This document shows, piece by piece, positions 2,041-60,130 of a stretch of 64,000 nucleotides of DNA (position 1 is the first letter of the stretch; each line of letters starts with the position of its first letter). Below the pieces are notes generated by a model. That model made no database searches. It saw nothing but the letters and a program-made list of their open reading frames with translations, and was not told where the DNA came from. Made by a program: the position numbers and the translations under genes. Source of the stretch: Mobula hypostoma (lineage: Eukaryota); NCBI RefSeq assembly GCF_963921235.1, contig NC_086108.1, forward strand, positions 79,548,001-79,612,000, in the 5' to 3' direction.

Positions 2041-3266
2041 TTCTTCCTTAAATCTCCCTGGGTTACAACTTCACACTGCTTGTACTTTAAACGTGTGGGG
2101 CAGGTTATTGAACTCAACAAAGAGTTACCTTGTTTATATAAAAGGAGACAGCCTCATTTTCGAAAACAGGCATGGGTAGAGTGGATGTGGAGACGATGTT
2201 TCCTATAGTGGATAAGTCGAGAGCCAGAGGGCACAGTCTCAGAATAGAAAGAAGTCCTTTTGAACCCAGATGAGGAGGAATTTCTTCAGCCAGACAATGG
2301 TGAACCTCTAGAAATCATTGCCACATAAGACTATGGAGGACAAGTCACGGGGTATATTTAAAGTGGAGGTTGATAGGTTCTTGATTAAAAGGCAGGAGAA
2401 TGGTGTTCAGAGAGATAATAAATCAGGCATGATGGAATGGCAAAACAGACTTGATGTGCCAAGTGGCCTAATACTGCTCTCGTGACTTGTACAGGATTCC
2501 AGTCAAGACAGAGTTCTTATTTGGCTCAAGAAACCAATTGCTAACTACTGCAAATGTGTAGATTTCCAGATGACTGATTTAGCTATGTGAAGGAGTTTTT
2601 ATTTCTGAAAAACTTGGCTTGCCCTTGCACATCATCATAGCACGTTGCTGTTGACCATATAAAAATTTCAGCATATGTAATTTTCACAGTAACAGTAGGC
2701 ACAATTTTGATGAAACTGCACCAACTATATTTCCAGAAAGATGAGCAGTGTAGAAATGTAGAATAAAGGATGAATCTGAAAATTTGTTCCAGGCAACAAC
2801 CCCTTGAGACGCGAATCACATTTACAAGAACTATGTTCCAGCAGTTCATGACAGTCAAATGATCTCCAGCAATGGTTCTACACTTCATCAGCTTCCCAAC
2901 TTCCATTAAAAACATTTACTTTAGAACTCGCCAATATAGATTTCCTCAGCTTATTTTGGTTTGTTTAAAGAGAGGTATTTGTGGTTTGTTGGCTAACCCA
3001 ATTTGAAGTGAAACATACTCAGTCATGCTGTGAGAATTGAAGTTACAAAAACAGCCCTTTAGGCTCTGCCTAGATGGAAACGGTAGCTGATGTAACTAAA
3101 AGTAATAGGCATTGCTACTGGGGGAAGAAATATCTCTGTCTCTCTCCACAAACACACAAGGATTCCCATCCTATGCAGCGATGGCTGCTCTTCTATTCTG
3201 TCAACTGGAAATATAGATATTTGAAAAGGAGATGAGAATGAAAAGTTAAACAAATGGTAAATATTC

Positions 3267-3485
3267 TCACAGAACGCTAGAGGAATTCAGCAGGCCAGGC
3301 AGCACCTATGGAAAAGAGTAAACTGTCAAAGTTTCGGGCTGAGACCCTTCAGCAGTACCCTGATAAAGGGTCTCAGTCCAAAACGCCGACTGTACTCTTT
3401 TCCATAGATGCTGCCTGGCTTGCTGAGTTCCTCCAGCATTTTGTGTGTGTTGCTTGGATTTCCAGCATCTGCAGATCTTTTTCTT
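3267..3485. mobile_element. Degenerate PLE-tail hairpin element
   Basis: gaggaattcagcaggccaggcagcacctatggaaaagagta... pairs with ...tactcttttccatagatgctgcctggcttgctgagttcctc, with two decayed hammerhead cores meeting near 3358. Confidence 0.75.
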
Positions 3486-9059: not shown

Positions 9060-10920
9060 TGGGAAATAAAACTGAAAATGCTGGAATAACTCGGCATGAC
9101 AAGCAGCATCTGCGGAAAGAGAAACAATTAACTTTTCAGGTCCAGGGTCCTCCTTCGTCAAAAGCAAGAAAAAGAGAAGCAAGTTGGTCTGGGTAGCAGG
9201 AAAGGGTGATTGGTGGGACAAAGCTTGTAGGATGAAATAATGAATACAAGATTCTGCGCGTGCTGGAAATCCAAAGCAACATGCACAAAGATGCTGGAGA
9301 AACTCTGCAGGTCAGGCAGCATCTGTGGAGAGGAATAAACTGTGGATGTTTCAGGCCGAGACCCTTCACCAGCACTTGAAAGGAAGGGGGAAGAAGCCAA
9401 GTAAGAAATGGAGGCAGGAAAAGGAGTACAAGCTAACAGATAATAGGTAATACCATTGAGGGGGAAGGGGATGAAGTAAGAAGCAGGTTTCAATTTGACT
9501 TCCCATTCCCCTTTTGACATGTCAGCCCGTGGCCGCCTGTTCTGCTGCAATGGGGCTACTCTTGGGTTGCAGGAGCAACACCTCATACTCTGTCAGGGTC
9601 TCTGACCTGCCAGCATTAACACTAGTTTCTCTAACTTAGGGTAATTTCTCCCCCCTGCCCCTTCTCTTTTCCTCACCTGCCTCTGGTAGCCCTCCTCCTC
9701 CCCCTTTGCCCATGGCGCACTGTCCTCTCCTATCAGATTCCTCCTCCTGCAGCCCTTCACTTCTTCCAGCCATCTTGGCCCAAAAAAAAACACCTGTTTA
9801 ATTCCCCTCCATAGATGCTGCCTGACCTGCTGAGTTCCTCCAGCATTATGAAGGTGAAATAATGGTTTAGTTATTGTGATGTGAAATGTGTTGCAAATGT
9901 GGTTTAGACTATGCAAACAAAAATGAGGAAAAAAAGGAGGATAGCAGACAAAAGTGGACAAATAGACAAAGAAGAACAAATTAACTAAAAGTGGAGAATG
10001 TGATGTTGGGTCCTATAGGATTGTGTCCTAAAAACAATGAGGTGTTGTTCCTTTAGCTTGTATTGTAAAAGTGAAGGAGGTCACAGTCGGAAAGGGAAGA
10101 TTGATAGTAGGATGCAAATTAAAATGGCAGGCAACAGAGATCAGGGTTTATCGCTGTCGTCTTGAGTACAGGTTCTCTGTGAAGTCATCACCCAAACCGT
10201 GTGTGGTTTCTTCACTGTAAAGGAGGCCATCTTTTGAACAAGTAATACAGTAATCTAGACTGGAGGAATTACAAGTGAGTTGTTCTTTCGCTTGGAAATT
10301 CTGTCCAGTACCCTGGATGGTGGGGTGTGAAGAAGTGAAGGGATGGGTGTTGCTCCTCTTGCAGTTGCATGGGAAGGGGCTGTACAATGGGGACTATTAG
10401 ACAGAGACAGAAGAGCAGACAGTGAACCATTTCAAAATGTTGAAACAGAGGGGAATGCGTGTCTGACGATGGAATCTTGTTGGAGCTGGCAGAAACTTTG
10501 AAAGACACTGCAATGAATTCAGAGCTGGTGTGATACAGACTGGGGACCTCAATTTTTGTTCTGTTCGGGAGGAGAAGGGGAGAGAGCAGAGCTACAGGAA
10601 ATAGGTCAGATGCATTCCGGGGTTCTTTCTATGAAAGTAAAGTGGAGCCATAATTAAGAGAGAAGCAAGCAATTTGGAGTCAACTGTACAGAAGATTTCT
10701 TCAATGGATCAAATGTGATGAAGGAGGAGGAAATGGGAGGATGGAATAGAGTCCTTACTGGAGGTAAGGTGGATGGAAAGTAACTATGCAGGGTCTGTCA
10801 ATCTTGGTTGCTACTCTTATCACTTGCGATGAAAATGGAGAAGGGAAGGGAGAGTCAGAGATGGAACATATGAAGATGGGAGCAGGTTAGAAGTCTACAA
10901 AGGTAATGGAATTTTTGACC
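9060..10920 (-). mobile_element. Old degenerate Penelope-like element (interrupted by 9243-9850)
   Basis: ORF 10148..10387 PFPCNCKR...PTIQG..QNFQ...DYCITCSKDGLLY.EET matches the linker/GIY-YIG of the 51694-53733 ORF. Tail at 9060-9240. Confidence 0.7.
9243..9850. mobile_element. Tail-out inverted PLE insertion nested in an older PLE
   Basis: Minus-strand 3' tail ~9243-9487, then a plus-strand GIY-YIG C-terminal remnant and tail ~9488-9850. tgaaataatg is duplicated at 9233-9242 and 9855-9864. Confidence 0.7.
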
Positions 10921-19766: not shown

Positions 19767-20563
19767 TACTATTTCTGTGTATATCTGAGCTCAGGACAGG
19801 TGCAAACATGTTGTATTTTCTTTTATTTAGTATTTACTTGTAAATAGAATAGAGATGAACAAAGTCAGTGGGCAAGGTGATAAATTGATAATAGAATCAT
19901 ATGCTTGTGTATTCATAGAGTCTGAGATTACATAGATCTTTTAGCCATTATAAAAGACAAGGAGAGTGTCTGTAAGGATATGACTGAAGGAATACTTGAA
20001 CATAGGACACTATATAGCACACTACATTCTCTTTGACCCAAAATGTGGTGCTGACCTTTTAACCTATTCTAAGGTCAATCTAACCCTGCACTCATGCAGA
20101 GGGTGCCTTCCATTTTTCTATCATTCAGGTGCCTATCCAAGCATTTCTTAAATGCCCCTAATGTGTCTGCCTCTACCACCACCTGTGCCAGGGCATTCCA
20201 TGCATTTATCACTCTCTGTGTGAAGAACTTACCTCGATGATGGCCCTGGTATTAACCGTTTCTGCCCTGGGAAAAAGTCTCTGGCTATTTTCTCGATCTA
20301 TGCCTCTTATGATCTTGAACACCTCCATCACGTCACCTTTGGAAGTACCTCTTTTTTCTGAGCGCATAATTCTAGAGGTAGTTATTAACTAATTAAATAA
20401 ATGTGCATTAGTTACTGAATACAGAAGGAAGTGATTCAGCCATGCATGCTAGTTGTAGCTTTTTGAAGTAGGAATCCCTGTTTAGTATCACATGAAGTCC
20501 TCTTTCTCATCTTTCAATATTTGGCCAGCACCCATTCAGAATTATGTTTGGATAAATATTTCA

Positions 20564-20771
20564 AAAACGCAAACAACAGGAATTCTGCAGATGCTGGAAA
20601 TTCAAGCAACACGCATCAAAGTTGCTGGTGAACGCAGCAGGCCAGGCAGCATCTCTAGGAAGAGGTACAGTCGACGTTTCAGGCTGAGACGCTTCGTCTG
20701 ATGAAGGGTCTCGGCCTGAAACGTCGACTGTACCTCTTCCTAGAGATGCTGCCTGGCCTGCTGCGTTCACC
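20564..20771. mobile_element. 208-bp hairpin mini-element derived from the PLE 3' end, 15-bp TSD
   Basis: Arms 20627-20698 and 20700-20771 are reverse complements with 3 differences in 72 nt. Flanks tggataaatatttca (20549-20563) and tggataagtatttca (20772-20786). Confidence 0.9.
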
Positions 20772-21160
20772 TGGATAAGTATTTCACTGTCTCATTTGAT
20801 GTAGACTTACAGACCCTGACAATTGTCACCGGGGGAAAAATTCCCTTCATCCCCTCCTCCTCTAAATCTGTGATCAGTGATAACTATCCAAAAGGAATAA
20901 ACTTTCTGTCTACTCTATAACCAGCTCACATCTTTCTGAAAAGGTCACATCATAACAGTCTTACAGGAAGAACAGTCGTCACCATTACAATGTTTCCTCA
21001 TTCTAGTAACATCCTGATTCACTCTTTATGTTCTTTTTCTAAGCAATTGTATCTTTCCTGGCAGCCAGAATTGTCATCTGAGGCCTGGCCTAGCAAGGTT
21101 CCAGTTTAATTTCACTTTTTATATTCTATGCTTCCTTTTGCACCAAGTAAGTCTAATAAG

Positions 21161-21677
21161 CAGACATCCCACCTCTCCTGGAAGTTCCGGGAGTCTCCCA
21201 CATATTAATAGTGGCTCCCTGATGCCCGCAAATTATATACAATATCACGGAAATCAATTTTTTTGCGAGCAAGAGAAAACGAGAGAGCGCGTGAGCAAGA
21301 GAGAGAGCGCGCGAGCAAGAGAGAGAGCGCGAGAGCACGCCATGGCAGGGTGTATAAAAGGTGCGTCACCCCAGACTACACTAAAGTGTACCCCTGCCTA
21401 ATAGGGGTCAAAAATAATGACAGTGTTGCTTACTGCACTGTTTGCAACAGTGACTTTTCTGTTGCCCATGGTGGGTTAAAATGTAAAAGACATGTTGAGG
21501 TGAGTTTAACAGGTGTCATTTGTTCATTAGCATAGCTAACATTATTTAAACTAGCTGGCTAGCTGCTAAGGAGCTACTCTATTGCAGACATCCCACCTCT
21601 CCCGGAAGTTCCAGGAGTCTCCGGCAAATTGATGGTGCTACCTCCCTGAAATGAGTTTTTGCAGGGTGGGATGTCTG
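21161..21677 (+). mobile_element. Non-autonomous hAT-like DNA transposon, 13-bp TIRs, 6-bp TSD
   Basis: aataag|CAGACATCCCACC...GGTGGGATGTCTG|aataag. Internal BED-like zinc finger remnant AYCTVCNSDFSVAHGG..KRHVE. Confidence 0.8.
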
Positions 21678-34395: not shown

Positions 34396-35335
34396 ATGTC
34401 TCCTGAGACAGTGATGTGCCTCTCATGTGAGATGTGGCAGTCTTGGGGGAACTCCCCTCTCCCGCAGAGTCACATCTGTCAGAAGTGCATATGGCTGGGC
34501 GAGCTGGAAGACCGTGTAAGAAATCTGGAGCACACCTGGATGACCTTCGACTCATAAGGGAGAATGAGGCAGTCATAGATGAGAGCTACTGGGAGGTAGT
34601 CACACCTAGGCTGTTGGAAGCAGGTTGTTGGGTGACAGTCAGAGGGGGAAAGTGAAGGTGAGCAGACAGGTAGTGCAGAGCACCCCAGTAGCCATTCCCC
34701 TGAATAATAAGTTTACCGTCCTGGATACTGTTGGCGGGAACGACCGACCAGGTGTGAGCCAGGGTGGCAGGGCCTCCGGCACTGAGTCTGAGCCGGTGGT
34801 GCAGAAGGGTGGGACAGAGAAGAGGAGAGCTGTCGTCATTGGAGACTCTATAGTCAGGGGAGCAGACAGGAGATTTTGTGGACGTGAGAAGGACACCCGC
34901 ATGGTTTGTTGCCTCCCGGGTGCCAGGGTCCGGGATGTCTCTAACCGGGTGCACGACATCCTGGTACGAGAGGGAAAGCAACCAGAAGTCATGACACATG
35001 TTGGGACCAACGACATAGGCAGGAAGAGGGATGAGGTCCTGAAGTGTGAGTTTCGGGAACTAGGCAGAAGGCTGAAGAACAGGACCTCAAGGGTGGCGTT
35101 CTCAGGATTGTTGCCAGTGCTACGTGACAGAGATGATAAGAATTGGAGGAGATGGCAGTTGAATGCGTGGCTGAGGAGTTGGTGCAAGGGGCAGGGTTTT
35201 AGATTTTTGAATCATTGGGATCTCTTCCAGGGAAGGTGGGACCTGTACAGATTGGATGGGTTGCACTTGAACTCGAGAGGGAGCAATATCCTTGCAGGTA
35301 GGTTTTCTAGCATGGTTCGGGAGCGTTTAAACTAA
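34396..35335 (+). pseudogene. CR1 ORF1: CxxC..CxxC zinc finger + SGNH/GDSL esterase-like domain, frameshifted
   Basis: MSPETVMCLSCEMW...HICQKC, then VVIGDSIVR, LPGA, HVGTNDI and DGLHLN in ORF 34625..35335. Confidence 0.85.
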
Positions 35336-35370
35336 TTTGCAAGGGGGATGGGACCCAGACCGATAGAGCA

Positions 35371-38225
35371 GTGAAAGAAGTGCATGGAGTAAAGCCAGAT
35401 CTAACATATAGAGAGGCTTTGAGAAAAGAGAAGCAGAATAAACAGTGTAAAGACAGTAAGGTAGAAGGGCTGAAATATGTGTACCTCAATGCAAGAAGCA
35501 TCAGGAACAAAGGTGATGAACTGAGAGCTTGGATACATACATGGAATTATGATGCAGTGGCCATTACAGAGACTTGGCTGGCACCAGGGCAGGAATGGAT
35601 TCTCAATATTCCTGGATTTCAGTGCTTTAAAAGGGATAGAGAGGGTGGAAAAAGGAGAGGAGGGGTGGCATTACTGGTCAGGAATACTATTGCAGCTACA
35701 GGAAGGGTGGGTAATGTAGCAGGATCCTCTTTTGAGTCAGTATGGGTGGAAGTCAGGAACAGGAAGGGAGCAGTTACTCTATTGGGTGTATTCTATAGGC
35801 CCCCTGGTAGCAGCAGAGATACAGAGGAGCAGATTGGGAGGCATATTTTGGAAAGGTTCAAAAATAACAGGGTTGTTATCATGGGTGACTTTAACTTCCC
35901 TAATATTGATTGGCACATGATTAGTTCCAAGGGTTTAGATGGGGCAGAGTTTGTTAAGTGTGTCCAGGACAGATTCCTGTCACGGTATGTGGACAGGCCG
36001 ACTAGGGGGAATGCCATACTAGATCTAGTACTAGGTAATGAACCGGGTCAGGTCACAGATCTCTCAGTGGGTGAGCATCTGGGGAACAATGACCACCGCT
36101 CCCTGGCCTTTAGCATTATCATGGAAAAGGATAGAATCAGAGAGGACAGGAAAATGTTTAATTGGGGAAGGGCAAGTTATGAGGCTATAAGGCTAGAACT
36201 TGCGGGTGTGAATTGGGATGATGTTTTTGCAGGGAAATGTACTATGGACATGTGGTCAATGTTTAGAGATCTCTTGCAGGATGTTAGGGATAAATGTGTC
36301 CCGGTGAGGAAGATAAAGAATGGTAGGGTGAAGGAACCATGGGTGACAAGTGAGGTGGAAAATCTAGTCAGGTAGAAGAAGGCAGCATACATGAGGTTTA
36401 GGAAGCAGGGATCAGATGGGTCTATTGAGGAATATAGGGAAGCAAGAAAGGAGCTTAAGAAGGGGCTGAGAAGAGCAAGAAGGGGGCATGAGAAAGCCTT
36501 GGTGAGTAGGGTAAAGGAAAACCTCAAGGCATTCTTCAACTATGTGAAGAAAAAAAGGATGACAGGAGTGAAGGTAGGACCGATTAGAGATAAAGGTGGG
36601 AAGATGTGCCTGGAGGCTGTGGAAGTGAGCGAGGTCCTCAATGAATACTTCTCTTCGGTATTCACCAATGAGAGGGAACTTGATGATGGTGAGGACAGTA
36701 TGAGTGAGTTTGATGTTCTGGAGCATGCTGATATTAAGGGAGTGGAGGTGTTGGAGTTGTTAAAATACATTAGGACAGATAAGTCCCCGGGGCCTGACGG
36801 AATATTCCCCAGGCTGCTCCACGAGGCGAGGGAAGAGATTGCTGAGCCTCTGGCTAGGATCTTTATGTCCTCGTTGTCCACAGAAATGGTACCGGAGGAT
36901 TGGAGGGAGGCGAATGTTGTCCCCTTGTTCAAAAAAGGTAGTAGGGATAGTCCGGGTAATTATAGACCAGTGAGCCTTACGTCTGTGGTGGGAAAGCTGT
37001 TGGAAAAGATTCTTAGAGACTGGATCTCTGGGCATTTAGAGAATCATGATCTGATCAGGGACAGTCGGCATGGCTTTGTGAAGGGCAGATCGTGTCTAAC
37101 AAGCCTGATAGAGTTCTTTGAGGAGGTGACCAGGCATATAGATGAGGGTAGTGCAGTGGATGTGATCTATATGGATTTTAATAAGGCATTTGACAAGCTT
37201 CCACACAGCAGGCTTATTCAGAAAGTCAGAAGGCAAGGGATCCAGGAAGTTTCTCCAGGTGGATTCAGAATTGGCTTGCCTGCAGAAGGCAGAGGGTCGT
37301 GGTGGAGGGAGTACATTCAGATTGGAGGATTGTGACTAGTGGTGTCCGACAAGGATCTGTTCTGGGACCTCTACTTTTCGTGATTTTTATTAATGACCTG
37401 GATGTGGGGGTAGAAGGGTGGGTTGGCAAGTTTGCAGACAACACAAAGGTTGGTGTTGTAGATAGCGTAGAGGATTGTTGAAGATTGCAGAGAGACATTG
37501 ATAGGATGCAGAATTGGGCTGAGAAGTGGCAGATGGAGTTCAACCCGGAGAAGTGTGAGGTGGTACACTTTGGAAGGACAAACACCAAGGCAGAGTACGA
37601 AGTAAATGGCAGGATATTTGGTTGTGTGGAGGAGCAGAGGGATCTGGGGGTACATGTCCACAGATCCCTGAAAGTTGCCTCACAGGTGGATAGGGTAGTT
37701 GAGAAAGCTTATGGGGTGTTAGCTTTCATAAGTCGAAGGATAGAGTTTAAGAGTCGCGATGTAATGATGCAGCTCTATAAAACTCTGGTTAGGCCACACT
37801 TGGAGTACTGTGTCCAGTTCTGGTCACCTCACTATAGGAAGGATGTGGAAGCATTGGAAAAGGTACAGAGGAGATTTACCAGGATGCTGCCTGGTTTAGA
37901 GAGTTTGCATTATGGTCAGAGATTAAGGGAGCTAGGGCTTTGCTCTTTGGAGAGAAGGAGGATGAGAGGAGACATGATAGAGGTGTTCAAGATAAGAAGA
38001 GGAATAGATAGAGTGGATAGCCAGCGCCTCTTCCCCAGGGCACCACTGCTCAATACAAGAGGACATGGCTTTAAGGTAAGGGGTGGGAAGTTCAAGGGGG
38101 ATATTAGAGGAAGGTTTTTTACTCAGAGAGTGGTTGGTGCGTGGAATGCACTGCCTGAGTCAGTGGTGGAGGCAGATACACTAGTGAAGTTTAAGACTAC
38201 TAGACAGGTACATGGAGGAATTTAA
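35371..38225 (+). pseudogene. CR1 ORF2 (APE + RT) with stops and frameshifts
   Basis: YLNARSI, AITETWL, GGGVAL, YRPP, MGDFNFP, LDLV, NDH, KSPGPDG, NYRPVSLTS, QGSVLGP, FADN (from FADD). Stops at 36373-36375 and 37479-37481, frameshift near 37250. Confidence 0.9.
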
Positions 38226-38824
38226 GGTGGGTGCTTATATGGGAAGCAGGGTTTGAGGGTCGGCACAACATTGTGGGCCGAAAGGCCTGTACTGTGCTGT
38301 ACTATTCTATGTTCTATGTTCTAATACCTGTCACCCATTTCCACCACCTTTGCCTCCAACTTAGGGTCACGAACCAGCCTGTTGTTTTCCTCTTTCCCCT
38401 GATAAATGGGTCCAAAATCATTGGCAAGTGCAGAAATCTTTTGAGGCTTAATTGGCAAGATGTATGGATAATGTTTCCCTCGGCTGGGGTGTGTCCAGAA
38501 CACAGATCGGAATACAGTCTCCAAAAAGGAGGCCAAACAGTGAGGACACAGAGGAGATTTATTTTCACCCCACCAAATGGGGTGCAGTGAATTTTTGGAA
38601 TTATATACCCAAAATGGCAGTGAAAGTTCAATCGCTGAACATATTCGAGAAAGACATTTGATGTCTTTCCTGTGGTCTGAGAACACTTGCTTCCATAACT
38701 CTATTCACAGTCAACTGCTGACAAAACAACTTCTCATCATGGCCTTCTTGTTCACTAATATTGTGAATAGTTTTCTCCTCTGCATTGTCTCCCTGTCCTA
38801 TAAATTAACCACTACCACCCAAAT

Positions 38825-39153: not shown

Positions 39154-42100
39154 CTACCCAACTGATACTTCACCCCGACATCCATGAAGCCTACAGCTAC
39201 ATCTCCACCTCTCTTCCCTTTAGAAGTCCTTGAAGATGGTACAGCCAAGTTCCTCACCATATTTTGTGGAAAACTCAAACTTTGAATCTTTGCAGGCTGC
39301 AAGGAGCCAACTCTGCCTCAAAACCTCCCTTTAAAAAAAGAAAAGGATTAGCTTTATTTCTCACATGTACATTGAAACATCGAAAGTGAAATGCATCCTT
39401 TGCGTCAAATTAAATCAGCAAGGATTGTGCTGGGCAGCGTACAAATATCGCTGTGCTTCCAGCCCGCAACACACTAACCCTAACCATATGTCTTTGGAGT
39501 GTGGGATACAGGACACCCAGAGGAAACCCACGTGGTCACAGGGAGAATGTGCAAACTCCTTTCAGTCAGCTGTGGGAATCAAATCCCGATCGGTGATCAC
39601 TGCCACCATAAAGCTATTGCGCTAATCGCTACACTGCCGTGCCATACTTGACTGGTCTGCAGTCTTTAAATTGTTGGAGTGCTGGATGAACTGAAATTCC
39701 CTTCAGGTGAGAAATGAGTAGATTGATACATTGTTCTCAGTAACTGCCATGAGCTCCATTCCCTTGGCGCATCCCTGTCCTTGGCTGCTAACTGAAATTG
39801 AACCAGAGTGTTCACAGCCTTAGTCCCGGAAGATTTTAAAACCACAGGTCTGTGCCATTGCAAACACAGTCTGCTTCTGCTCTGAATTATTTCCCGATGA
39901 GTTGTAATCTATTCTAGCCCCCAAATCCCTGGCAATTTAATCCCCTTAAATCTAGGTTCTTTATCATTCCTAAATTAAATCGTTTTACCATTGATGACTA
40001 TATTTTTAACTATCAGCTCTCCTCAATCAAAGAGAGTACTAGAAATTCTCAGCAGCTTGCCCTGCATGGGAAGAGAAACAGATTTGATGTTTCTGATTGA
40101 AGACCTGAACTAGGAAGGAGAGAAAGGAAGCTGAGTAAACTGCAAGAAAGGTCAGGAAGGGGGGTGGTGGGGGGTGGTGTGGGTTGTTGGGGAACAGATT
40201 ATTGTTTTCTTTTTTCTCTCTAGCGATGGAGAACACCTACCAGGCATGTCTTCCTGCTCTACATTTCACAACTCCTGCGTTCTTTGTCTCTCTGCTTTTG
40301 CGTGTGCTCTCACTCACTATCCACTCCCATTAACTCATTTTCTGGTGAAGCCCAGCGACTACTTATTGGCAGCAAACGAAACAAAGTATACAACTAAATA
40401 CTTCATTATTTACATCTTTCTGGTAAAATTTATGGTAAGCAATCCCTGCGAACAGTGGAGAGGCAAGGCTAAGTCGAGGGTCAAAGCACTCAGGTGTGAA
40501 GTGAGCTGGAGGCAAAACGTGGCAGCAGGGTCCGAGCCCAGACCATAACAATGCAGTAGGACCCAGGTCCCAGAGCAAGAAATGACCTGATGTTTGGATG
40601 ATTCAAATGCTGGGCCAGATGCATTGAAAGGGAGAGTGATGGGAACAAAGGCAAGCATCAGGCCAGTTCTGTTTGCTGCTCAGCCCTTTGCTAAGCTAAG
40701 GCTGTGGCCTGCTTTGGCCACTCTCAGCTTCACGCCTGTGGGCTCCGCGACATTTACTCGGCTCTGCGCTGAGCTGAGGCTGCGGCTGTGGCCTGCTCTG
40801 GGATTTGTGTACGTGGACTCACTTTCATTCTGAATATTATTTGCTTGCTTTTATGGTTTGCATGAATTTTTTTCTCTTTCTCTCTGCGCATTGAGTGTTT
40901 GACTGTCTTTCTTTGAAATTTTTTTTGGCGTTTCTTTGTTTCGTGGCTGCCTGTAAAGAGACGAGTCTCAGGGTTGTATAACGTGCACATACTTTGATAA
41001 TAAATGTACTTTGAAGTTTTGAATTTTGTTTTACAGCTTTTACCCCATTCACCCCTGTTTTACGCTATTAGGGATATCCTGCCACGCTGCATTCTCTTTT
41101 CCCTTCTTCCCAAGTCTCAGGAAGGGTCTTCAACCTGAAACGTTAACTGTTTCTCTTCCCACAGGTGCGCCTCAACCTGCTGAGCATTTACAGTATTTTG
41201 TCTGTTTTATTTTGCATTACATTTTCAACTACTTTGGGTTTTCTGCCTTCCTCAATATTTGTCCTCATAGCTCCCTCCATCTCTTTTCTGTCTACTAGAA
41301 TAGTATTATTATCTGGCTTTTTGACTTGGTGAGAAGTTTTGTTTGATTTAGTTCCTGTGAGATACATTTTACTAAACTTGTTATGTGATTGGCACTATAT
41401 AAATACATTGCCAATATTGGTGTTGCTAGCCAAAAAGTTTTAATCTCACTACTTTTGACAACACTCACCCTGCAAATGCAGATATTAAACCAATGGGAAA
41501 AATGGTACAGCTAACTATGTATAGAATTAATTTGTTAAATTCCAGTGCAGAGGTACAAAGATGACTAAGGCTGTAGAATAAATTAATTATCCATCTGTTT
41601 CTGTGATTACTTTGTAACTTGAAGGAGAAGATAACTATTTGGAGTATTATCACGAATATAGCTTGCTTATAAGTTCCAACTAATTAAAAGTTGTACTTCC
41701 TGGTAAGGGCATTCTTTTCCTTGATTGCAAAACCCACCTTAGAAGTGACACAATTTCACTTGAGTACAGTACAGCAGCCAGCTGTGGATGCCAGAAGAAC
41801 AGAGTTAAAATTGTAGTTTAATAATCTCTTATCAGTCTAGGATTAGCATCCATAATGTGCACAAGGGTGAAATGGAAATCTGAGATAAGGTACCACTCTT
41901 TGGAATGGATGAATCAGAAATACGAATATGTGGAGTTGGCCCTTCCTCCTCTCCGCCCACTAAAGAATTATGGGAAGTTTGATCAACGAGATGCATGTTC
42001 CATTCTAATTGGGAGAGAAATTTGTTTCTGCTTTAGAACATAGAACATAGAATAGTACAGCATAGTACAGGCCCTTCAGCCAACAATGTTGTGCCGACCC

Positions 42101-43268
42101 TTAAACCCTGCCTCCCATATACCCCCCCACCTTAAATTCCTCCATATACCTACTAGCCAAGTTAAAATCTGCCGCAGCAAATTTTGTATCGTTAATCTTT
42201 TGTGCGTATAAATAGACAAAAATCATTACATAGCGTACAATGCTGAAATGATTTTTCCTTTCATATTTCCATTCCAGAAATTACCATTCCTTTTAAAGAA
42301 CATTTGTTAACTCCCCTCTCAGCATGCCAACTGAGTTGAAATTTTGAAATACAGATTCTGTTTCCACAAGAACAATATTATAATATGCTAAGCTAATTTT
42401 AAACAGGAATAGATATTCATTCAGTCAGAAGTAGTGGAGTCCCATTTCTCACTGATAAAATCTGTTGCTTAAAACTTATCAGTTTTGGAAATGGTTATGG
42501 AAAAAAATAACTATTTGAGGGAATGGAGTAAATACCTACCAGCTAAAATGCTTCCCTGTAGAGTAAACTTAGTTTTCAGTCTCCTTGAAATTCACTATCA
42601 TACAACCTGCATGGATCTAACTTGTTGCATCCAGTTCCGCAATTTCCCACAACCGTATTGCAGTGCTTTCAGTTTAAGATGCTTTTTACTTAACAACGTT
42701 TACCATTGACTCGTTTGGCTCACATGCTTCTGTGCTCACGTTAATATGATTGATGTTTGTATTTGTGATATGCATTCCTGTCTTTAATTACCATAAAGCA
42801 TGGCTATTTTCTAAATATGGTAAATACTTGTCTGCTGTTCCAAACTTATCTCGTGCACACCTTTAACGTACAATGTGAGCTGCTATTGTTTAGGGTTTAG
42901 GATTGGATGTCCATGTGTTGAGCTGATAATCAATCATTCTAGTGCTCTTGAAGTGAGCAGAAGTCAGATGCTGGGCTTTTATTCTCCATTTACTTTGTAG
43001 TGAAAAAAGGAAATAGCGAGAAACCATGGAGCAATATGTGCCCTTATTGTCAATTGTAGAGCAGAAGTTGGTCTGGTTTGTGACAAGTAGCCTTCCTGAT
43101 TATTTGACTGGGCAGTTTGGAAGAGAGGCATCTGTCTGTGTGTATCTCCTTCTCCTTCTCTCTGATCTAATATTTCATATAGACGGATAATTTTACAAAA
43201 ATTTTGAGAGATTTTTCATTTCCTACATCAATTTTTCTTGTGGCCTATCTGAATAAAATTGCCAAGTC

Positions 43269-43652: not shown

Positions 43653-45126
43653 TGTTAGGATGTTATTCACCTGTGTGTGCCAAAAAAAAAGGATAAGAAT
43701 AGTTAATCTTGGTTCACGTTAAACCCTATAGCTGGAGAGAGAAAATAAAGGGTTTCCAGACGATGAGTTGAATACAGATTTGAATCAGATCCCAATGATG
43801 AAAGAACACAGGGCTAATCAATAATGACATCCAGTCCCCTTGACTCTACAGCAATTTTGTTTTCCGTTTTTACTTAAATCATGCATGGGATCAGTTGCTG
43901 AATACTCAGGTGGCCAGTCTCTCTGTGTGAGTTTAAATACTGAGCGCTGGCAGATTGCATAACTGTGAAGGAATGATAGATGAACCAGTTCTCTACTTGC
44001 CAAACAGAGCATTAGCTTTGGCTGGAGAGAAAACAGAAGTAGCAACAATAACTGTTTATCCTCAGCCACCACCCTCATGTCCTAACACAGGACTAACATT
44101 TCAGCTCAGTCTTCATGAGTTCAGGTCATTGACCTAACAATAACTTAGCTTCTCCCTTCTCAGTTTGTTTTCCTTTGACTTAACTTTGCTGAGACCAGAA
44201 TCTCAACCACATACAAAGAGAGGAGCAAAGATTTGAAATTAATGACAGGACCTAACTTTTTTTTCCTCACTTGCTGACTGGCAGTACAAACAGGTCAGGA
44301 AACCGGCTGAAAGGTGGAGAGGAAGGCCTCCAGTACCATGCTCCAGCTCAGAGCACAGCAGACAGTAGGAAAGTATAAATACAAGATGCTGGAAATCTAG
44401 AGCACTGCACACAGCGTGCTGGAGGAGCTCAGCAGATCAGGCAACATCTATGGATAGGAATAAACAGTCGAAGTTTCAGTCCGAGACCCTTCATCAGAAA
44501 GCTTTGAAGTGGAGAGCAGAATGGACAGGTGGAGGAAGAGCACATGCTGGAAGAGGGACCAAGGAAAGATGGATGAGTGGGATTTGGAGAGATTGAGGGA
44601 GTGAAGAGCTATGGTTGTCCGTATGGTGTACGTAAAAATTAATAGATGAGGGTTCTGCAGAAATTGTGGAGTTTCATTTGCTGTGCTGTATTGAGCATGA
44701 TTTGATTAGGGGCATCTGATCACAAAGAAGGGGCTATGATTGTGCTTGGGGTGTATGTAATTGTTGGGGTTCACTGGTTAGCATAGCTAGAGTTACATTC
44801 ATGAGAATAGTGAGTTTAGATGGAGGGAGAACATCTAATGGATACTGACTGAGTAGGAAAATGGCCAGGGGAGAACTTCTGTTCTTCCTAGCCTTAAGCA
44901 ATGTTAGGCACTTGCTGGTTCCCACTGCCTGTCAGCTACCAGCTTTTCTATACCCAGCAAAGCTGACTACTGTACAGCGCTTAAATGCAAAACAGAGCTG
45001 CTGGTAGTTAAAATCAGAAATGGGAATGCTGGCACGAGGAAATCTGCAGATGCTGGAAATTCAAGCAACGCACATCAAAGTTGCTGGTGAACGCAGCAGG
45101 CCAGGCAGCATCTCTAGGAAGAGGTA

Positions 45127-45165
45127 CGGTCGACGTTTCGGGACGAGACCCTTCATCAGGACTAA
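45127..45165 (-). ncRNA. Minimal type I hammerhead ribozyme motif in PLE 3' fragment (~45034-45180)
   Basis: Minus strand TTAGTC-CTGATGA-AGGGTCTCGTCCC-GAAAC-GTC^GACCG. Confidence 0.75.
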
Positions 45166-45625
45166 CTGAAAGAAGAGCTAGGATAAGAGATAGGATAAGA
45201 AGAACTGGGGTAAGATTTGTCATTTTTGAGTTTTGAACAGTGAGTCCCCATTCCCAAGGTGCTCAGAAACAAGCATTTTAATCTTAATTTCAGATGGACA
45301 TGTATATTGTTTAATAAATGATAAATATTTAGGGAGATGGCAGTCTGTGTTGTGTTCGTGTGGAAATACCTGAAGCAAAATTACCTGAAATATAAAACAG
45401 TTTCAGAGGTTTTGTGTGAACATCGGTCTCTATCTGAGGCTAAACTTGCTCAACGCTGTATGAAACCTCCTTCTGCTTTATTGTTCTGTGAAACTAGGAA
45501 AGCCAATGAATGACTGGTTTGCCATTGTTGTCATGGTGGGCTAACATTTTAGCTGTTTTACAAACCCTTGTAGTTACATGCAGGAGATAATATTGAGTGA
45601 AGTGAGGGACTTGGGACAAGTTTGA

Positions 45626-49646: not shown

Positions 49647-50931
49647 TAAGGGGGAGGGGGTCTTCTCGTTTCTTCAGCCTGTTTGCTCCAGTTGGTTTGT
49701 CACCAACTTCCACATATAACCACTGGAGGGAGCACTTATGCAAAAGCTTTGCTTTTGTAGACAGATGGTTGACGAACACCAGTTCTGTAATTCTGATATT
49801 GGATGCCTTGCTGTTTTGAATCCCGTTTGCTTTTGATTAGAATCAAATATTAAGATGGTCCCAAATATATCCACAGTCAGTGTGCATTCTGCCATCCAGA
49901 AATCCAATTCATGGCAGTTGGGAATTTCAATTTAGTTAATTAAAATGTTTTAATTATTGAAGCAACCCCATCAAAACATGTTTTTGGTTGTAGTGCACTA
50001 CTAACATGTGGGGAAGCAGATTGTTGTGGAAAGTGTGATATTCAATTCTGTTGTTCAGTTCTATTTGCACTTCATTGGAAAATGCAGCAGCCCATATCTG
50101 CCTGCAGTAAGATCTAGGCAACTTGCAGACGTGGGATATTACATAGCAGATAAGATTTATGCTTTGGCAATGACACTGCCAATAAGGGAGAGTCTAATCA
50201 CATACCCTTAGTATTTACCCGCATCCCTATCACTCAGTATCATTAAAAGCCTGATCAGTAACGTCAATACCACAGCTAAAAGAACAGCTCAGAGGCTGGG
50301 GTTTCTACGCTGGGTAGCTCACTGTCTGAGTCCCAAAGGCCTTTTCACCATCTGCAGGGTACAAATAAGGAGCCTGACGGAACACTTCCTAACCAGGGGA
50401 GATGGCGGCAATTCTAGAAGAGCTGCTGCCCCTCAATCCTGACCTTCGTTACTCTCTGAGTAGAGAATGCACATTCTCCCTCTGACAAAGTGCTTTGGTT
50501 TCCTCTCAACATCCCAAAGCTGTGCAATTGAGTGGTGAGTTTTCTGCTGCAAATAAGAGGTAGAATGATTCAGGTCAGGGAGATGGATGTGGAGAAAATA
50601 AAGCGGAATTTGTCTAGGATCAAGAGAATGCAGGTGCTGGAATATGGAGCAAATAACAAGCTGCTAGAGGAATAGTGTAAATGGGCTTTGATGGCTAGTG
50701 TGATCTGTAGGCCTTGTTTTATGCTGCTTGGCTCCAAGAGTTCAACATGTCTCTTAAATGGTACGCCATCTGCAATCAGTTTTGCTCCTTCCGTAACCAG
50801 CACATACCATGGTTGTAATTCCTACCCTGCAGAATGGAAACAGGAATTCTGCAGATGCTGGAAATTCAAGCAACACACATCAAAGTTGCTGATGAACGCA
50901 GCAGGTCAGGCAGCATCTGTAGGAAGAGGTG

Positions 50932-50969
50932 CAGTCGACGTTTTAGGCCGAGACCCTTCGTCAGGACTA
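50932..50969 (-). ncRNA. Hammerhead motif in the inverted arm, GAAA core mutated to AAAA
   Basis: Minus strand TAGTC-CTGACGA-AGGGTCTCGGCCT-AAAAC-GTC-GACTG. Position 50944 is t where other copies have c. Confidence 0.7.
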
Positions 50970-51693
50970 ACTGAAGGAAGAGTGAGTAAGGGATTTGAAA
51001 GTTGGAGGGGGAGGGGGAGATCCAAAATGATAGGAGAAGACAGGAGGGGGAGGGATAGAGCCAAGAGCTGGACAGGTGATAGGCAAAAGGGGATACGAGA
51101 GGATCATGGGACAGGAGGTCCGGGAAGAAAGACAAGGGGTGGGGGGGAGGACCCAGAGGATGGGCAAGAGGTATATTCAGAGGGACAGAGGGAGAAAAAG
51201 GAGAGTGAGAGAAAGAATGTGTGCATAAAAATAAGTAACAGATGGGGTACGAGGGGGAGGTGGGGCCTTAGCGGAAGTTAGAGAAGTCGATGTTCATACC
51301 ATCAGGTTGGAGGCTACCCAGACGGAATATAAGGTGTTGTTCCTCCAACCTGAATGTGGCTTCATCTTTACAGTAGAGGAGGCCATGGATAGACATGTCA
51401 GAATGGGAATGGGATGTGGAATTAAAATGTGTGGCCACTGGGAGATCCTGCTTTCTCTGGCGGACAGAGCGTAGATGTTCAGCAAAGCGGTCTCCCAGTC
51501 TGCGTCGGGTCTCGCCAATATATAAAAGGCCGCATCAGGAGCACCGGATGCAGTATATCACCCCAGTCGACTCACAGGTGAAGTGTTGCCTCACCTGGAA
51601 GGACTGTTTGGGGCCCTGAATGTTGGTAAGGGAGGAAATGAAAGGGCATGTGTAGCACTTGTTCCGCTTACATGGATAAGTGCCAGGAGGGGA

Positions 51694-53733
51694 GCCTACT
51701 TCTTCGGCAAGGACTCTTCCACGCCCACCGATGACCCCTTCTCCCGTCTTCAACCCTCCTCTTCTTCATGGACACCCCGCTCTGGTCATCTGCCTGCTCT
51801 GGATCTCTTTATCGCTAATTGCCGACGGGACATCAACTGTCTCGACTTCACTGCACCTTGTCCCCATTCCAACCTCACTCCTTCGGAACGCTCTGCTCTC
51901 CACTCCCTCCGCACTAATCCTAACCTTATTATTAAACCCGCCGATAAGGGGGGTGCTGTTGTAGTCTGGCGTACTGACCTCTACCTTGCCGAGGCACAGC
52001 GACAACTCGCGGATACCTCCTCTTATTTACCCCTCGATCGTGACTCCACTAAGGAGCACCAGGCCATTTGTCTCCCACACCATCACCGACTTTATCCGCT
52101 CAGGGGATCTCCCATCCACTGCCACCAACCTTATAGTTCCAACACCCCGCACTTCCCGTTTCTACCTCCTACCCAAGATCCACAAACCTGCCTGTCCTGG
52201 CCGACCTATTGTCTCAGCTTGCTCCTGCCCCACCGAACTTGTTTCTGCATACCTCGACACAGTTTTATCACCCCTTGTTCAATCCCTTCCTACCTATGTT
52301 CGTGACACTTCTCACGCTCTTAAACTTTTCGATGATTTTAAGTTCCCTGGCCCCCACCGCTTTATTTTCACCATGGATGTCCAGTCCTTATATACTTCCA
52401 TCCCCCATCAGGAAGGTCTCAAAGCTCTACGCTTCTTTTTGGATTCCAGACCTAATCAGTTCCCCTCTACCACCACTCTGCTCCGTCTAGCGGAATTAGT
52501 CCTTACTCTTAATAATTTCTCCTTCGGCTCCTCCCACTTCCTCCAAACTAAAGGTGTAGCTATGGGCACCCGTATGGGTCCTAGCTATGCCTGCCTTTTT
52601 GTTGGGTTTGTGGAACAATCTATGTTCCGTGCCTATTCTGGTATCTGTCCCCCACTTTTCCTTCGCTACATCGACGACTGCATTGGCGCTGCTTCCTGCA
52701 CGCATGCAGAACTCGTTGACTTTATTAACTTTGCCTCCAACTTTCACCCTGCCCTCAAGTTTACCTGGTCTATTTCTGACACCTCCCTCCCCTTTCTAGA
52801 TCTTTCTGTCTCTGTCTCTGGAGACAGCTTATCCACTGATGTCTACTATAAGCCTACTGACTCTCACAGCTATCTGGACTATTCCTCTTCTCACCCTGTC
52901 TCTTGCAAAAACGCCATCCCCTTCTCGCAATTCCTCCGTCTCCGCCGCATCTGCTCTCAGGATGAGGCTTTTCATTCTAGGACGAGGGAGATGTCTTCCT
53001 TTTTTAAAGAAAGGGGCTTCCCTTCCTCCACTATCAACTCTGCTCTTAAACGCATCTCCCCCATTTCACGTACATCTGCTCTCACTCCATCCTCCCGCCA
53101 CCCCACTAGGAATAGGGTTCCCCTGGTCCTCACCTACCACCCCACCAGCCTCCGGGTCCAACATATTATTCTCCGTAACTTCCGCCACCTCCAACGGGAT
53201 CCCACCACTAAGCACATCTTTCCCTCCCCCTCTCTCTCTGCATTCCGCAGGGATCGCTCCCTACGCAACTCCCTTGTCCATTCGTCCCCCCATCCCTCCC
53301 CACTGATCTCCCTCCTGGCACTTATCCGTGTAAGTGGAACAAGTGCTACACATGCCCTTACACTTCCTCCCTTACCACCATTCAGGGCCCCAAACAGTCC
53401 TTCCAGGTGAGGCAACACTTCACCTGTGAGTCGACTGGGGTGACATACTGCGTCCGGTGCTCCCGATGTGGCCTTTTATATATTGGCGAGACCCAACGCA
53501 GACTGGGAGACCGCTTTGCTGAGCATCTACGCTCTGTCCGCCAGAGAAAGCAGGATCTCCCAGTGGCCACACATTTTAATTCCACATCCCATTCCCATTC
53601 TGACATGTCTATCCACGGCCTCCTCTACTGTAAAGATGAAGCCACACTCAGGTTGGAGGAACAACACCTTATATTCCGTCTGGGCAGCCTCCAACCTGAT
53701 GGCATGAACATTGACTTCTCTAACTTCCGCTAA
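51694..53733 (+). pseudogene. PLE ORF: reverse transcriptase + Cys linker + GIY-YIG endonuclease, two frameshifts
   Basis: Motifs IKPADKGGAVV, YLLPKIHK, GRPIVS, MDVQSLYTSIP, GVAMGTRMGPSYA, RYIDD, PFLD, YYKPT. Linker C-x4-C-x2-C (PCKWNKCYTC). Endonuclease VTYCVRCSRC..YIGET.R...RFAEH, ending GMN. Frameshifts near 52067 and ~53295 split it over ORFs 51583.., 51986.. and 53407..53733. Confidence 0.92.
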
Positions 53734-54029
53734 GGCCCCACCTCCCCCTCGTACCCCATCTGTTACTTATTTTTATGCACACATTCTTTCTCTCACTCTC
53801 CTTTTTCTCCCTCTGTCCCTCTGAATATACCCCTTGCCCATCCTCTGGGTCAACCCCCCACTCCTTGTCTTTCTTCCCGGACCTCCTGTCCCATGATCCT
53901 CTCGTATCCCTTTTGCCTATCACCTGTCCAGCTCTTGGCTCTATCCCTCCCCCTCCTGTCTTCTCCTATCATTTTGGATCTCCCCCTCCCCCTCCAACTT
54001 TCAAATCCCTTACTCACTCTTCCTTCAGT

Positions 54030-54067
54030 TAGTTCTGACGAAGGGTCTCGGCCTGAAACGTCGACTG
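54030..54067 (+). ncRNA. Minimal type I hammerhead ribozyme motif in the PLE 3' region
   Basis: TAGTT-CTGACGA-AGGGTCTCGGCCT-GAAAC-GTC^GACTG: core CUGANGA and GAAA, stem II hairpin, GUC triplet (predicted cut after 54062), stem I AGTT/GACT, stem III reduced to palindromic ACGT. Confidence 0.8.
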
Positions 54068-55167
54068 CACCTCTTCCTACAGATGCTGCCTGGCCTGCTG
54101 CGTTCACCAGCAACTTTGATGTGTGTTGCCTGCAGAATGGAGGTCATTCTGTCAGCATCTCCTAAACTGGTGATCTCTATTGCTAAATAGACTGGATGGA
54201 TGGAAATGCTGCCAGCGTACGGTCCCCTCCAAGTTACGAACCTGAGTAAGAAGTTCACTGCTGTTCCTTTATCATCACTGGGTTAAACTAATGAAACACG
54301 CCACCCGTAATGAGAAGACTGCAGTAATTCAAGCTGGTCATCAAGTGCCGCCTCCTTACCAGCAATGGCTATAGTCCATAAGTAAATGAAAATCATGTGA
54401 GGTTCCAACCAGCAGACTTTTTATAGTCACCCATATACTTCTTTTAGTTTATTAGTTAACGTGATGTTACTGATTAACTGTGGAATCTGTATCAGTATTG
54501 GTAATATGGGTAAGGATGATAAAGGAGTCTGTAAGTACGCCAAGACAAAGCTGTGTGCAAACTGCACAATTACCATGCAAATAAACAAGTTTCTAGCAGT
54601 GTAATTATTTGTAGTTTGTTTGAAAATACAGCACCCCTCTACAAATAGTTTAGTTTATAATCACAGAAGTTAAAGAAAGTTTTGTTCAAAGTAAATTAAT
54701 TATCCAAGTACATACTTGCCACCATATGCACCCCGGAGAATCATTTTCTTACGCGCATTCACAATAGAGACATGATAGCATGAATGAAAAACAGCACACA
54801 ACAAGATGGACAAACAACCCCATGTGCAAAACACAAACTGTGCAAGTACAAAAAAAATAATAAATAAACAATAAATATTGGGAACATGAGATGAATTGTC
54901 CTTGAAAGTGAGTCCATAGCTTGAGGGAACAGTTCAGTGTTAGGGTGAGTGAAGTTATCCCTTCTGGATCAAGAGCCTGATTAGGGGAATAACTGTTCCT
55001 GAACTTGGTGGTGTGAGTCCACGTGGTATATTAAAACTTTCAATCCCAGATCTTACTGTAAGGACATTGTTTATTGAATATAGAATTGTGGTGAGATATT
55101 GCCCATGCTTAATTCATAAAACCAATGGAAAGTGTATGGATTTTTTAACATACCATAATAAACATGA

Positions 55168-59884: not shown

Positions 59885-60130
59885 AAGATATGAAATAAAA
59901 ATGGAAGATGCTGGAAGCTCTCAGCAGGTTAGGCAACATTAGTGGAAAGAGAAACAAGGTTATTATTTCAAGTCCAAGACCCTCTAACTGAGGAAAAGAA
60001 AAGAGGTTTAAGTATATCTCAGTTATCTCCCTTTCTCAGTTCAGATGAAGGGTCTCTTATTTGGAACGTTAAATGTTTCTCTCTCCACAGATGCTGCCTG
60101 ATCTGCTGAGTGTTTCCAGAATTCGCTTAC
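59885..60130. mobile_element. Old PLE-tail hairpin element
   Basis: ctcagcaggttaggcaacattagtggaaagagaaaca versus tgtttctctctccacagatgctgcctgatctgctgag. Decayed core cagatgaagggtc...ggaacgtt. Confidence 0.65.

Follow-up and report, generated by a model that had tools for sequence, protein, structure and literature searches.

The hairpin at positions 20549-20786 is an ordinary, dated integration product of a Penelope-like element (PLE), of a type already described, and it sits in an intron of ZSWIM5. Its structure, its PLE origin, the empty site in other organisms and its intronic position are shown by the sequence evidence. For its formation we think it probable that an endonuclease-positive (EN+) PLE primed on both strands of its target, that the two products were joined and that this one-off insertion, dead since then, decayed in place; the two priming events, the joining and the lost mobility are what we infer. 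Positions refer to the window, the whole stretch of 64,000 nucleotides that was analyzed, and offsets are numbered from the C of CTGA as 0. The parts of the hairpin are as follows.

20549-20563, + strand: left copy of the target site duplication (TSD), 14 of 15 positions matching the right copy; a single copy is present where contigs of runs X9 and X10 show the empty site.
20564-20626, - strand: extension that lengthens the long arm by 63 nt (offsets +74 to +136) and contains the optional PLE "tail" and a long-class 3' end.
20627-20698, - strand: long (left) arm, an antisense PLE end module whose 5' truncation, at +2, falls within the hammerhead core.
20698-20699, + strand: junction; 20698 is common to both arms (1-nt microhomology) and 20699 is the unpaired centre.
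20698-20771, + strand: short (right) arm in sense orientation, offsets 0 to +73; core box, helix II and GAAA box are present, the 5' strand of helix I is missing.
20772-20786, + strand: right TSD copy, matching the left copy at 14 of 15 positions.

The insert between the TSD copies is 208 bp long. Its two 72-nt arms (20627-20698 and 20700-20771) differ at 3 of 72 positions around a 1-nt centre inside CTGA, with about 63 nt extra at the left, exactly as the original prediction described them. The centre base, 20699, is the unpaired T of CTGA (20698-20701). Counted from the centre, the differences are at positions 3, 8 and 14 and are thus bunched near the hairpin tip (p = 0.006, calculated after the pattern was noticed), and the longest perfect run of the stem is 58 bp in the outer part of the arms. 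Two of the three differences fall on CpG sites. One such site is at offset +4, where the arms differ and both bases are present in other copies. Folded as the + strand, the hairpin reaches -163 kcal/mol (z = -20.2), with 0 of 200 shuffles equally stable. The left copy including its extension is antisense and runs from +136 down to +2. The extension could be aligned as far as about +122/+125 with the 45030 and 50839 copies, and its last 11 nt had no partner within the window. If C is ancestral at +4, a direction that is uncertain, all three differences within 20685-20702 are changed cytosines of the + strand, the non-template strand of the host gene.

Three relatives of the hairpin in the window were compared with it.

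50839-54128, + strand: long relative, a 3.3-kb, 5'-truncated and frameshifted PLE with RT, linker motif and GIY-YIG, an inverted 5'-truncated copy at 50839-51691 and a 12-13-bp TSD.
45030-45189, - strand: solo copy from the subfamily of the hairpin arms, with its 5' end truncated at about -30.
3259-3480, no strand assigned: hairpin of an older subfamily, built alike, with its centre at about 3354-3357, arms ending a few bases from the core start, with one long and one short end.

The RT of the 3.3-kb element matched PF00078 with an E-value of 9e-06 (26 bits, below the curated cut-off of 29.6), and its GIY-YIG domain, located after PF00078, matched PF01541 at the cut-off (E 1.3e-04). In the frame 53212-53733 there is a linker motif, C-X4-C-X2-C, recognized by eye against the published CX2-5CxxC definition; such a motif before the endonuclease is a feature of Neptune and Nematis (PMC8557442). 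The clade name Neptune/Nematis for the 3.3-kb element is a lead that this motif offers. The hairpin arms differ at 3-7 of 72 positions from the copies at 45030-45189, 50839-51691 and 54000-54128, in agreement with the match to the tails at about 45 kb and 54 kb reported from the first reading of the DNA. By this alignment the hairpin is the end module of an EN+ PLE. At +33 and +45 both of its arms share their bases with the 45030 copy and not with the 3.3-kb copy, so the latter is not the parent and the arms come from a sister subfamily.

The arms of the 3.3-kb element are identical at 798 of 823 positions. Its left arm extends to +125, the right one only to +97, and the right has 1.6 kb absent from the left. 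The hairpin shares with it the end module, the head-to-head layout with a long and a short end, and a TSD, which bears out the description of the hairpin as a minimal form of the 3.3-kb architecture; with an empty site found in two organisms, the same features support calling it an extreme truncation product. The arms of the older hairpin at 3259-3480 gave 72 identities, 14 mismatches and 2 gaps in a gapped alignment. A convincing TSD was sought and not found for this hairpin (best 8/12) or for the 45-kb copy. The flank of the older hairpin (3257-3268) resembles the AT-rich target at 20549-20563, by target preference or by chance.

The intact neighbours have a hammerhead motif with CTGANGA and GAAA, one additional base ahead of helix II, a G-C closing pair and a helix I of 4 bp; a helix III stem is absent. 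All four helix I pairs are present in the copies at 54035 and 50964, the latter with an altered GAAA box. The right hairpin arm kept the core and one of the four helix I pairs, the left arm lost the CTGANGA box, and both are without the 5' strand of helix I. Read against this motif, the hammerheads of the arms are relics, cut at the core and buried in the stem, with no working ribozyme. The phrase "back-to-back ribozyme tails" needs one qualification: both arms are PLE end modules, but neither is a complete minimal hammerhead. Across the window Rfam returned 0 matches at the gathering score, and no Rfam hammerhead family matched even an intact neighbour; because of this, the hammerhead call rests on a descriptor built by hand. 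We also considered and rejected ribozyme cutting as the origin of the junction. The predicted cut follows the 28th base from the C of CTGA and the junction is at 0/+2, about 26 nt upstream, so cleavage did not define it.

A pyrimidine tract and AG right before the core at 54020-54038, and likewise in the copies at 50964, 45159, 8765 and 1050, resembles a splice acceptor, and many copies start nearby. An AG occurs 3 times in 284 nt upstream of the core, two of them within 8 nt of it. In Drosophila Penelope an intron ends at the 5' end of helix I (PMC4209133). We keep a putative splice acceptor as no more than a lead for the pile-up of 5' ends, because spliced RNA would run on into an upstream exon. 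Copies on the + strand in ZSWIM5 introns could themselves act as candidate cryptic acceptors.

Contigs from four public runs with four organism labels (4 of the 24 runs listed, none of them an RNA run) were aligned to 20050-21300. In runs X9 (record 25) and X10 (record 10) a single contig follows the left flank to 20563, has 6 letters and resumes at 20795. These contigs are the empty site with one target copy; the gap has 6 letters against 8 expected because X5 is without 2 letters at 20793. In runs X1 and X5, contigs at single-copy depth enter the element from each flank by 24-28 letters (in X1 with 0 other letters). Being 24-28 letters inside, these junction contigs fall below the bridge threshold of 31 letters, and X1 is possibly the window's own source. 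Among the pieces listed from the four runs, none spans the hairpin centre. The 15-bp TSD was found as predicted, at 14 of 15 positions, and no other site in the window is within 2 mismatches of it. The original prediction had also made the element depend on its presence in raw reads and had proposed an empty-site check: both junctions are in contigs of X1 and X5, and two more distant organisms, X9 and X10, have one target copy in their contigs. The hairpin is a real insertion.

The flanks diverge from the window at 9 of 773 positions in X5 (1.2%), 33 of 659 in X9 (5.0%) and 56 of 682 in X10, which dates the insertion between the nearer split (X5) and the next one (X9). The arms diverge from each other by 4.2% (3/72; 95% interval 0.9-11.7), compatible with the flank values of 1.2% in the filled and 5.0% in the nearer empty organism. 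The value fits neutral decay during this period, the interval being wide. The hairpin, present in two of the organisms and missing from the two others, is a clean phylogenetic marker.

The host of the insertion is a gene known by its exons.

6089-27906, + strand: ZSWIM5 intron of 21.8 kb, delimited by tblastn exon hits, with GT/AG at its ends.

With four named ZSWIM5 proteins, tblastn gave 11 exon hits in order on the + strand between 1487 and 62732. They cover residues 255-837 of a 1122-aa relative, and the entire window is inside the gene. Close matches of the exons to ZSWIM5 of rays and a shark place the host among the cartilaginous fishes. Pfam (0 of 6 frames), PDB and Atlas gave no identification of the host exon; the protein search identified ZSWIM5. 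As the hairpin is in an intron of this gene, dsRNA from it is plausible. If ZSWIM5 is transcribed, its pre-mRNA would contain a stem about 70 bp long that includes 58 perfect pairs, and on the ZSWIM5 strand two of the three arm differences become G-U pairs. Long stems of this kind are ADAR substrates. Intronic copies would yield long dsRNA in the manner of Drosophila, where inverted Penelope copies matched siRNAs (PMC3681739).

We collected 23 end-module hits in the window, 22 with nhmmer and one more by blastn. Ten of them form five head-to-head pairs (3259-3480, 9241-9857, the 20549-20786 hairpin, 50839-54128 and 59905-60116), with 9241-9857 and 59905-60116 called from orientation and spacing alone. 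At the 3' end, 9 hits are short (+73 to +97), 11 are long (about +109 to +136) and 3 are unscored. Four of the five pairs combine a long with a short end, a proportion that is not significant alone, and the fifth has one unscored end. At the 5' end, 10 hits stop within -13 to +5, 7 at -30 or beyond, and 6 are unscored; the first group is maybe inflated because old subfamilies diverge upstream of the core.

The public contigs show that the end module is a very abundant repeat, with a summed arm depth in the millions against 6-20 in the flanks, a figure that gives no copy number. A second abundant repeat, at 21161-21275, is covered far more deeply by X1 and X5 than by X9 and X10. Among the joints listed (15 of 772), 14 join an antisense piece, which ends at 13 places in 20601-20674, to a sense piece. 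Thirteen of these 14 resume at 20698-20708, a pile-up that is partly an edge effect because the sense arm of the reference starts at 20698. Several other junctions, found in more than one organism, have one or two contigs at a depth of 70-196, where the flanks have 6-10. For the junction 20640 to 20698 the depth is 78.4 in one X1 contig, 125.4 in two X5 contigs and 9.3 in one X10 contig. The junctions of other loci at about tenfold single-copy depth are 20640-20698, 20607-20704, 20644-20703, 20654-20744 and 20674-20708, candidate hot spots of recurrence or replicated junctions. Such multi-copy junctions may have formed repeatedly where a few letters are shared, or may descend from a master locus that already had the junction. 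The varied junctions, together with the five pairs in the window, favour repeated independent formation.

In the mechanism that we favour, the PLE protein would make one cut in each strand of an AT-rich target, with a spacing of 15 bp taken from the TSD. Each free 3' end would prime RT on the element RNA, one from the long start at +136 and one from +73, and both cDNAs would end where the hammerhead motif begins on its 5' side. A single shared base would connect them, and gap filling would then leave a head-to-head hairpin between the TSD copies, open to later decay. Purified PLE protein does cut and extend both strands, and its RT starts at two internal sites downstream of the hammerhead (PMC11167929); this two-strand priming is that of a lizard Poseidon-clade element in vitro, not of the hairpin's PLE family. 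An inverted 5'-truncated copy, a one-sided tail and a TSD are typical features of PLE insertions (PMC8557442, PMC3846280). The 3.3-kb element is not one self-copied cDNA, because each of its arms has sequence missing from the other. The short arm of the hairpin ends at +73 and the next short-class end in the window lies 9 nt beyond it, so +73 is not clearly an RT start site.

That end would require no start site under self-priming, the main rival to two-strand priming, which we consider possible but rather unlikely. The long-arm cDNA would fold back near the 5' edge of the hammerhead, copy 72 nt and join the other target end, the loop being trimmed later; the product would be equally dead. Palindromic head-to-head PLE junctions have been interpreted in this way (PMC3846280), young copies have a possible fold-back site at the centre (offsets -10 to +3, where a 4-bp inverted repeat encloses a 6-nt loop), and the outer 58 bp of the arms are identical. 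However, with a stem of at least 3 and a loop of at least 3, no fold-back register yields the 1-nt centre directly, and the observed centre demands a further 9-nt deletion. The 3.3-kb relative could not be made by self-priming either. The difference between the arms at +4, with both bases seen elsewhere, also speaks against self-priming, but as a CpG site it is perhaps simple decay.

The original prediction had raised a self-propagating family, of which the hairpin would be a daughter: read-through RNA of an older head-to-head locus would be reverse-transcribed from the long tail and the junction inherited as a unit. Some junctions do occur, in more than one organism, at about tenfold flank depth, the RT of PLEs begins at internal sites and copies any sequence that lies upstream (PMC11167929), pLTRs move passenger DNA in trans (PMC3846280), and putatively non-autonomous PLE families are present in Chlamydomonas (PMC8557442). 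We nevertheless find this origin improbable. The junctions are heterogeneous, and those in multiple copies sit at short shared letters, where independent recurrence would be expected in an abundant family. The older hairpin at 3259-3480 is of a different subfamily with a different centre. On the ZSWIM5 strand only the short arm is sense, ending before every other scored 3' end, which would make the hairpin locus a poor master. A 15-mer across the hairpin junction has one exact site in the window, a weak test, and a family of the hairpin's own is unlikely. Pattern scans found 0 loci in metagenome contigs, viral contigs and prokaryote genomes, as expected of an animal repeat. Were hammerhead-edge hairpins nonetheless copied as units by PLE protein, a prospect to which we give little credence, they would form fold-back, non-autonomous retro-families whose perfect 70-bp stems, spread in great number through the introns of the lineage, would be a built-in source of dsRNA directed at the RT-start region of the element. 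The pile-up of 5' ends at the hammerhead edge would then mark a fixed step of the PLE cycle, be it the RNA 5' end, a splice acceptor or a fold-back site; no such step was found in the literature searched.

Three further readings are in our view very improbable: a MITE mobilized by a DNA transposase, a host hairpin under selection (resembling a miRNA or serving editing) and an assembly artefact. The stem of the hairpin is long and near-perfect, miRNA precursor models match it (best mir-789, 52 bits), and the arm differences cluster at the tip (the post hoc p = 0.006). The Rfam matches are far under the gathering scores and reflect a generic stem, and a miRNA precursor identity based on such E-value-level matches was rejected. 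The insertion is absent from two related organisms and the arm divergence fits neutral decay; against an artefact, the junction ends were found in a second organism and study. A MITE has terminal inverted repeats at both ends and a short TSD of fixed length. Here 63 nt lie outside the arm at the left end, so the repeats are not terminal on both sides, and the TSD varies, with 15 bp against 12-13 bp in the relative. The duplication is of the retro-insertion type, and the "MITE-like" reading raised at first has no direct support.

Other sequences in the window also drew attention. Long frames at 34610-38225 resemble what we take to be a CR1-type LINE (endonuclease and RT), with the APE/RT frames on the - strand, and there is presumably an esterase-like frame on the + strand at 34610-35335. 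The segments 38206-38324 and 42033-42151 are 119-nt inverted repeats, 92% complementary and 3.7 kb apart, possibly the ends of a DNA transposon.

As a decayed insertion of a described type, the single locus matters little. As a population, these very numerous short insertions are a record of how PLE integration begins and ends, a point that the PLE literature, in the portions available, leaves unsettled. We found no literature, by titles and abstract openings, on this PLE family or on replicating PLE hairpins, including sharks and rays, twin priming and palindromic non-autonomous PLEs; Repbase, supplements and most subscription papers lay outside the scope of the search. Very short 5'-truncated PLE insertions are described in Chlamydomonas (PMC9977147).

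Among known systems, Pen2a_Av of Adineta vaga (Arkhipova et al. 2013, PMC3846280; Craig et al. 2021, PMC8557442) shares with the hairpin an inverted 5'-truncated copy, a one-sided tail, a variable TSD and a near-palindromic junction. Unlike in insertions of the Pen2a_Av type, only the last 74 nt of one copy and 135 nt of the other remain in the hairpin, which makes the entire insert a non-coding hairpin. Its extension is 63 nt against a published tail of 30-40 bp, and its TSD 15 bp against 8-10. Anolis Poseidon in vitro (Frangieh et al. 2024, PMC11167929) similarly has an AT-rich target, both strands cut and extended, and two RT starts that account for the tail. It differs in clade, as the hairpin's family has the Neptune/Nematis linker cysteine motif, and the available text of PMC11167929 does not describe joined head-to-head products. 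The minimal type I hammerheads of PLE pseudo-LTRs (Cervera and De la Pena 2014, PMC4209133) fit the intact neighbours in the window, whereas the motifs of the insert are incomplete and locked in a long stem. In Schistosoma, hammerhead pairs occur 100-700 bp apart on opposite strands (PMC4209133). The non-LTR retrozymes (bioRxiv 10.64898/2026.07.22.740005) are likewise short, non-coding, PLE-derived and hammerhead-bearing. They are, however, head-to-tail tandems with complete type I hammerheads, while the hairpin is head-to-head and has none complete.
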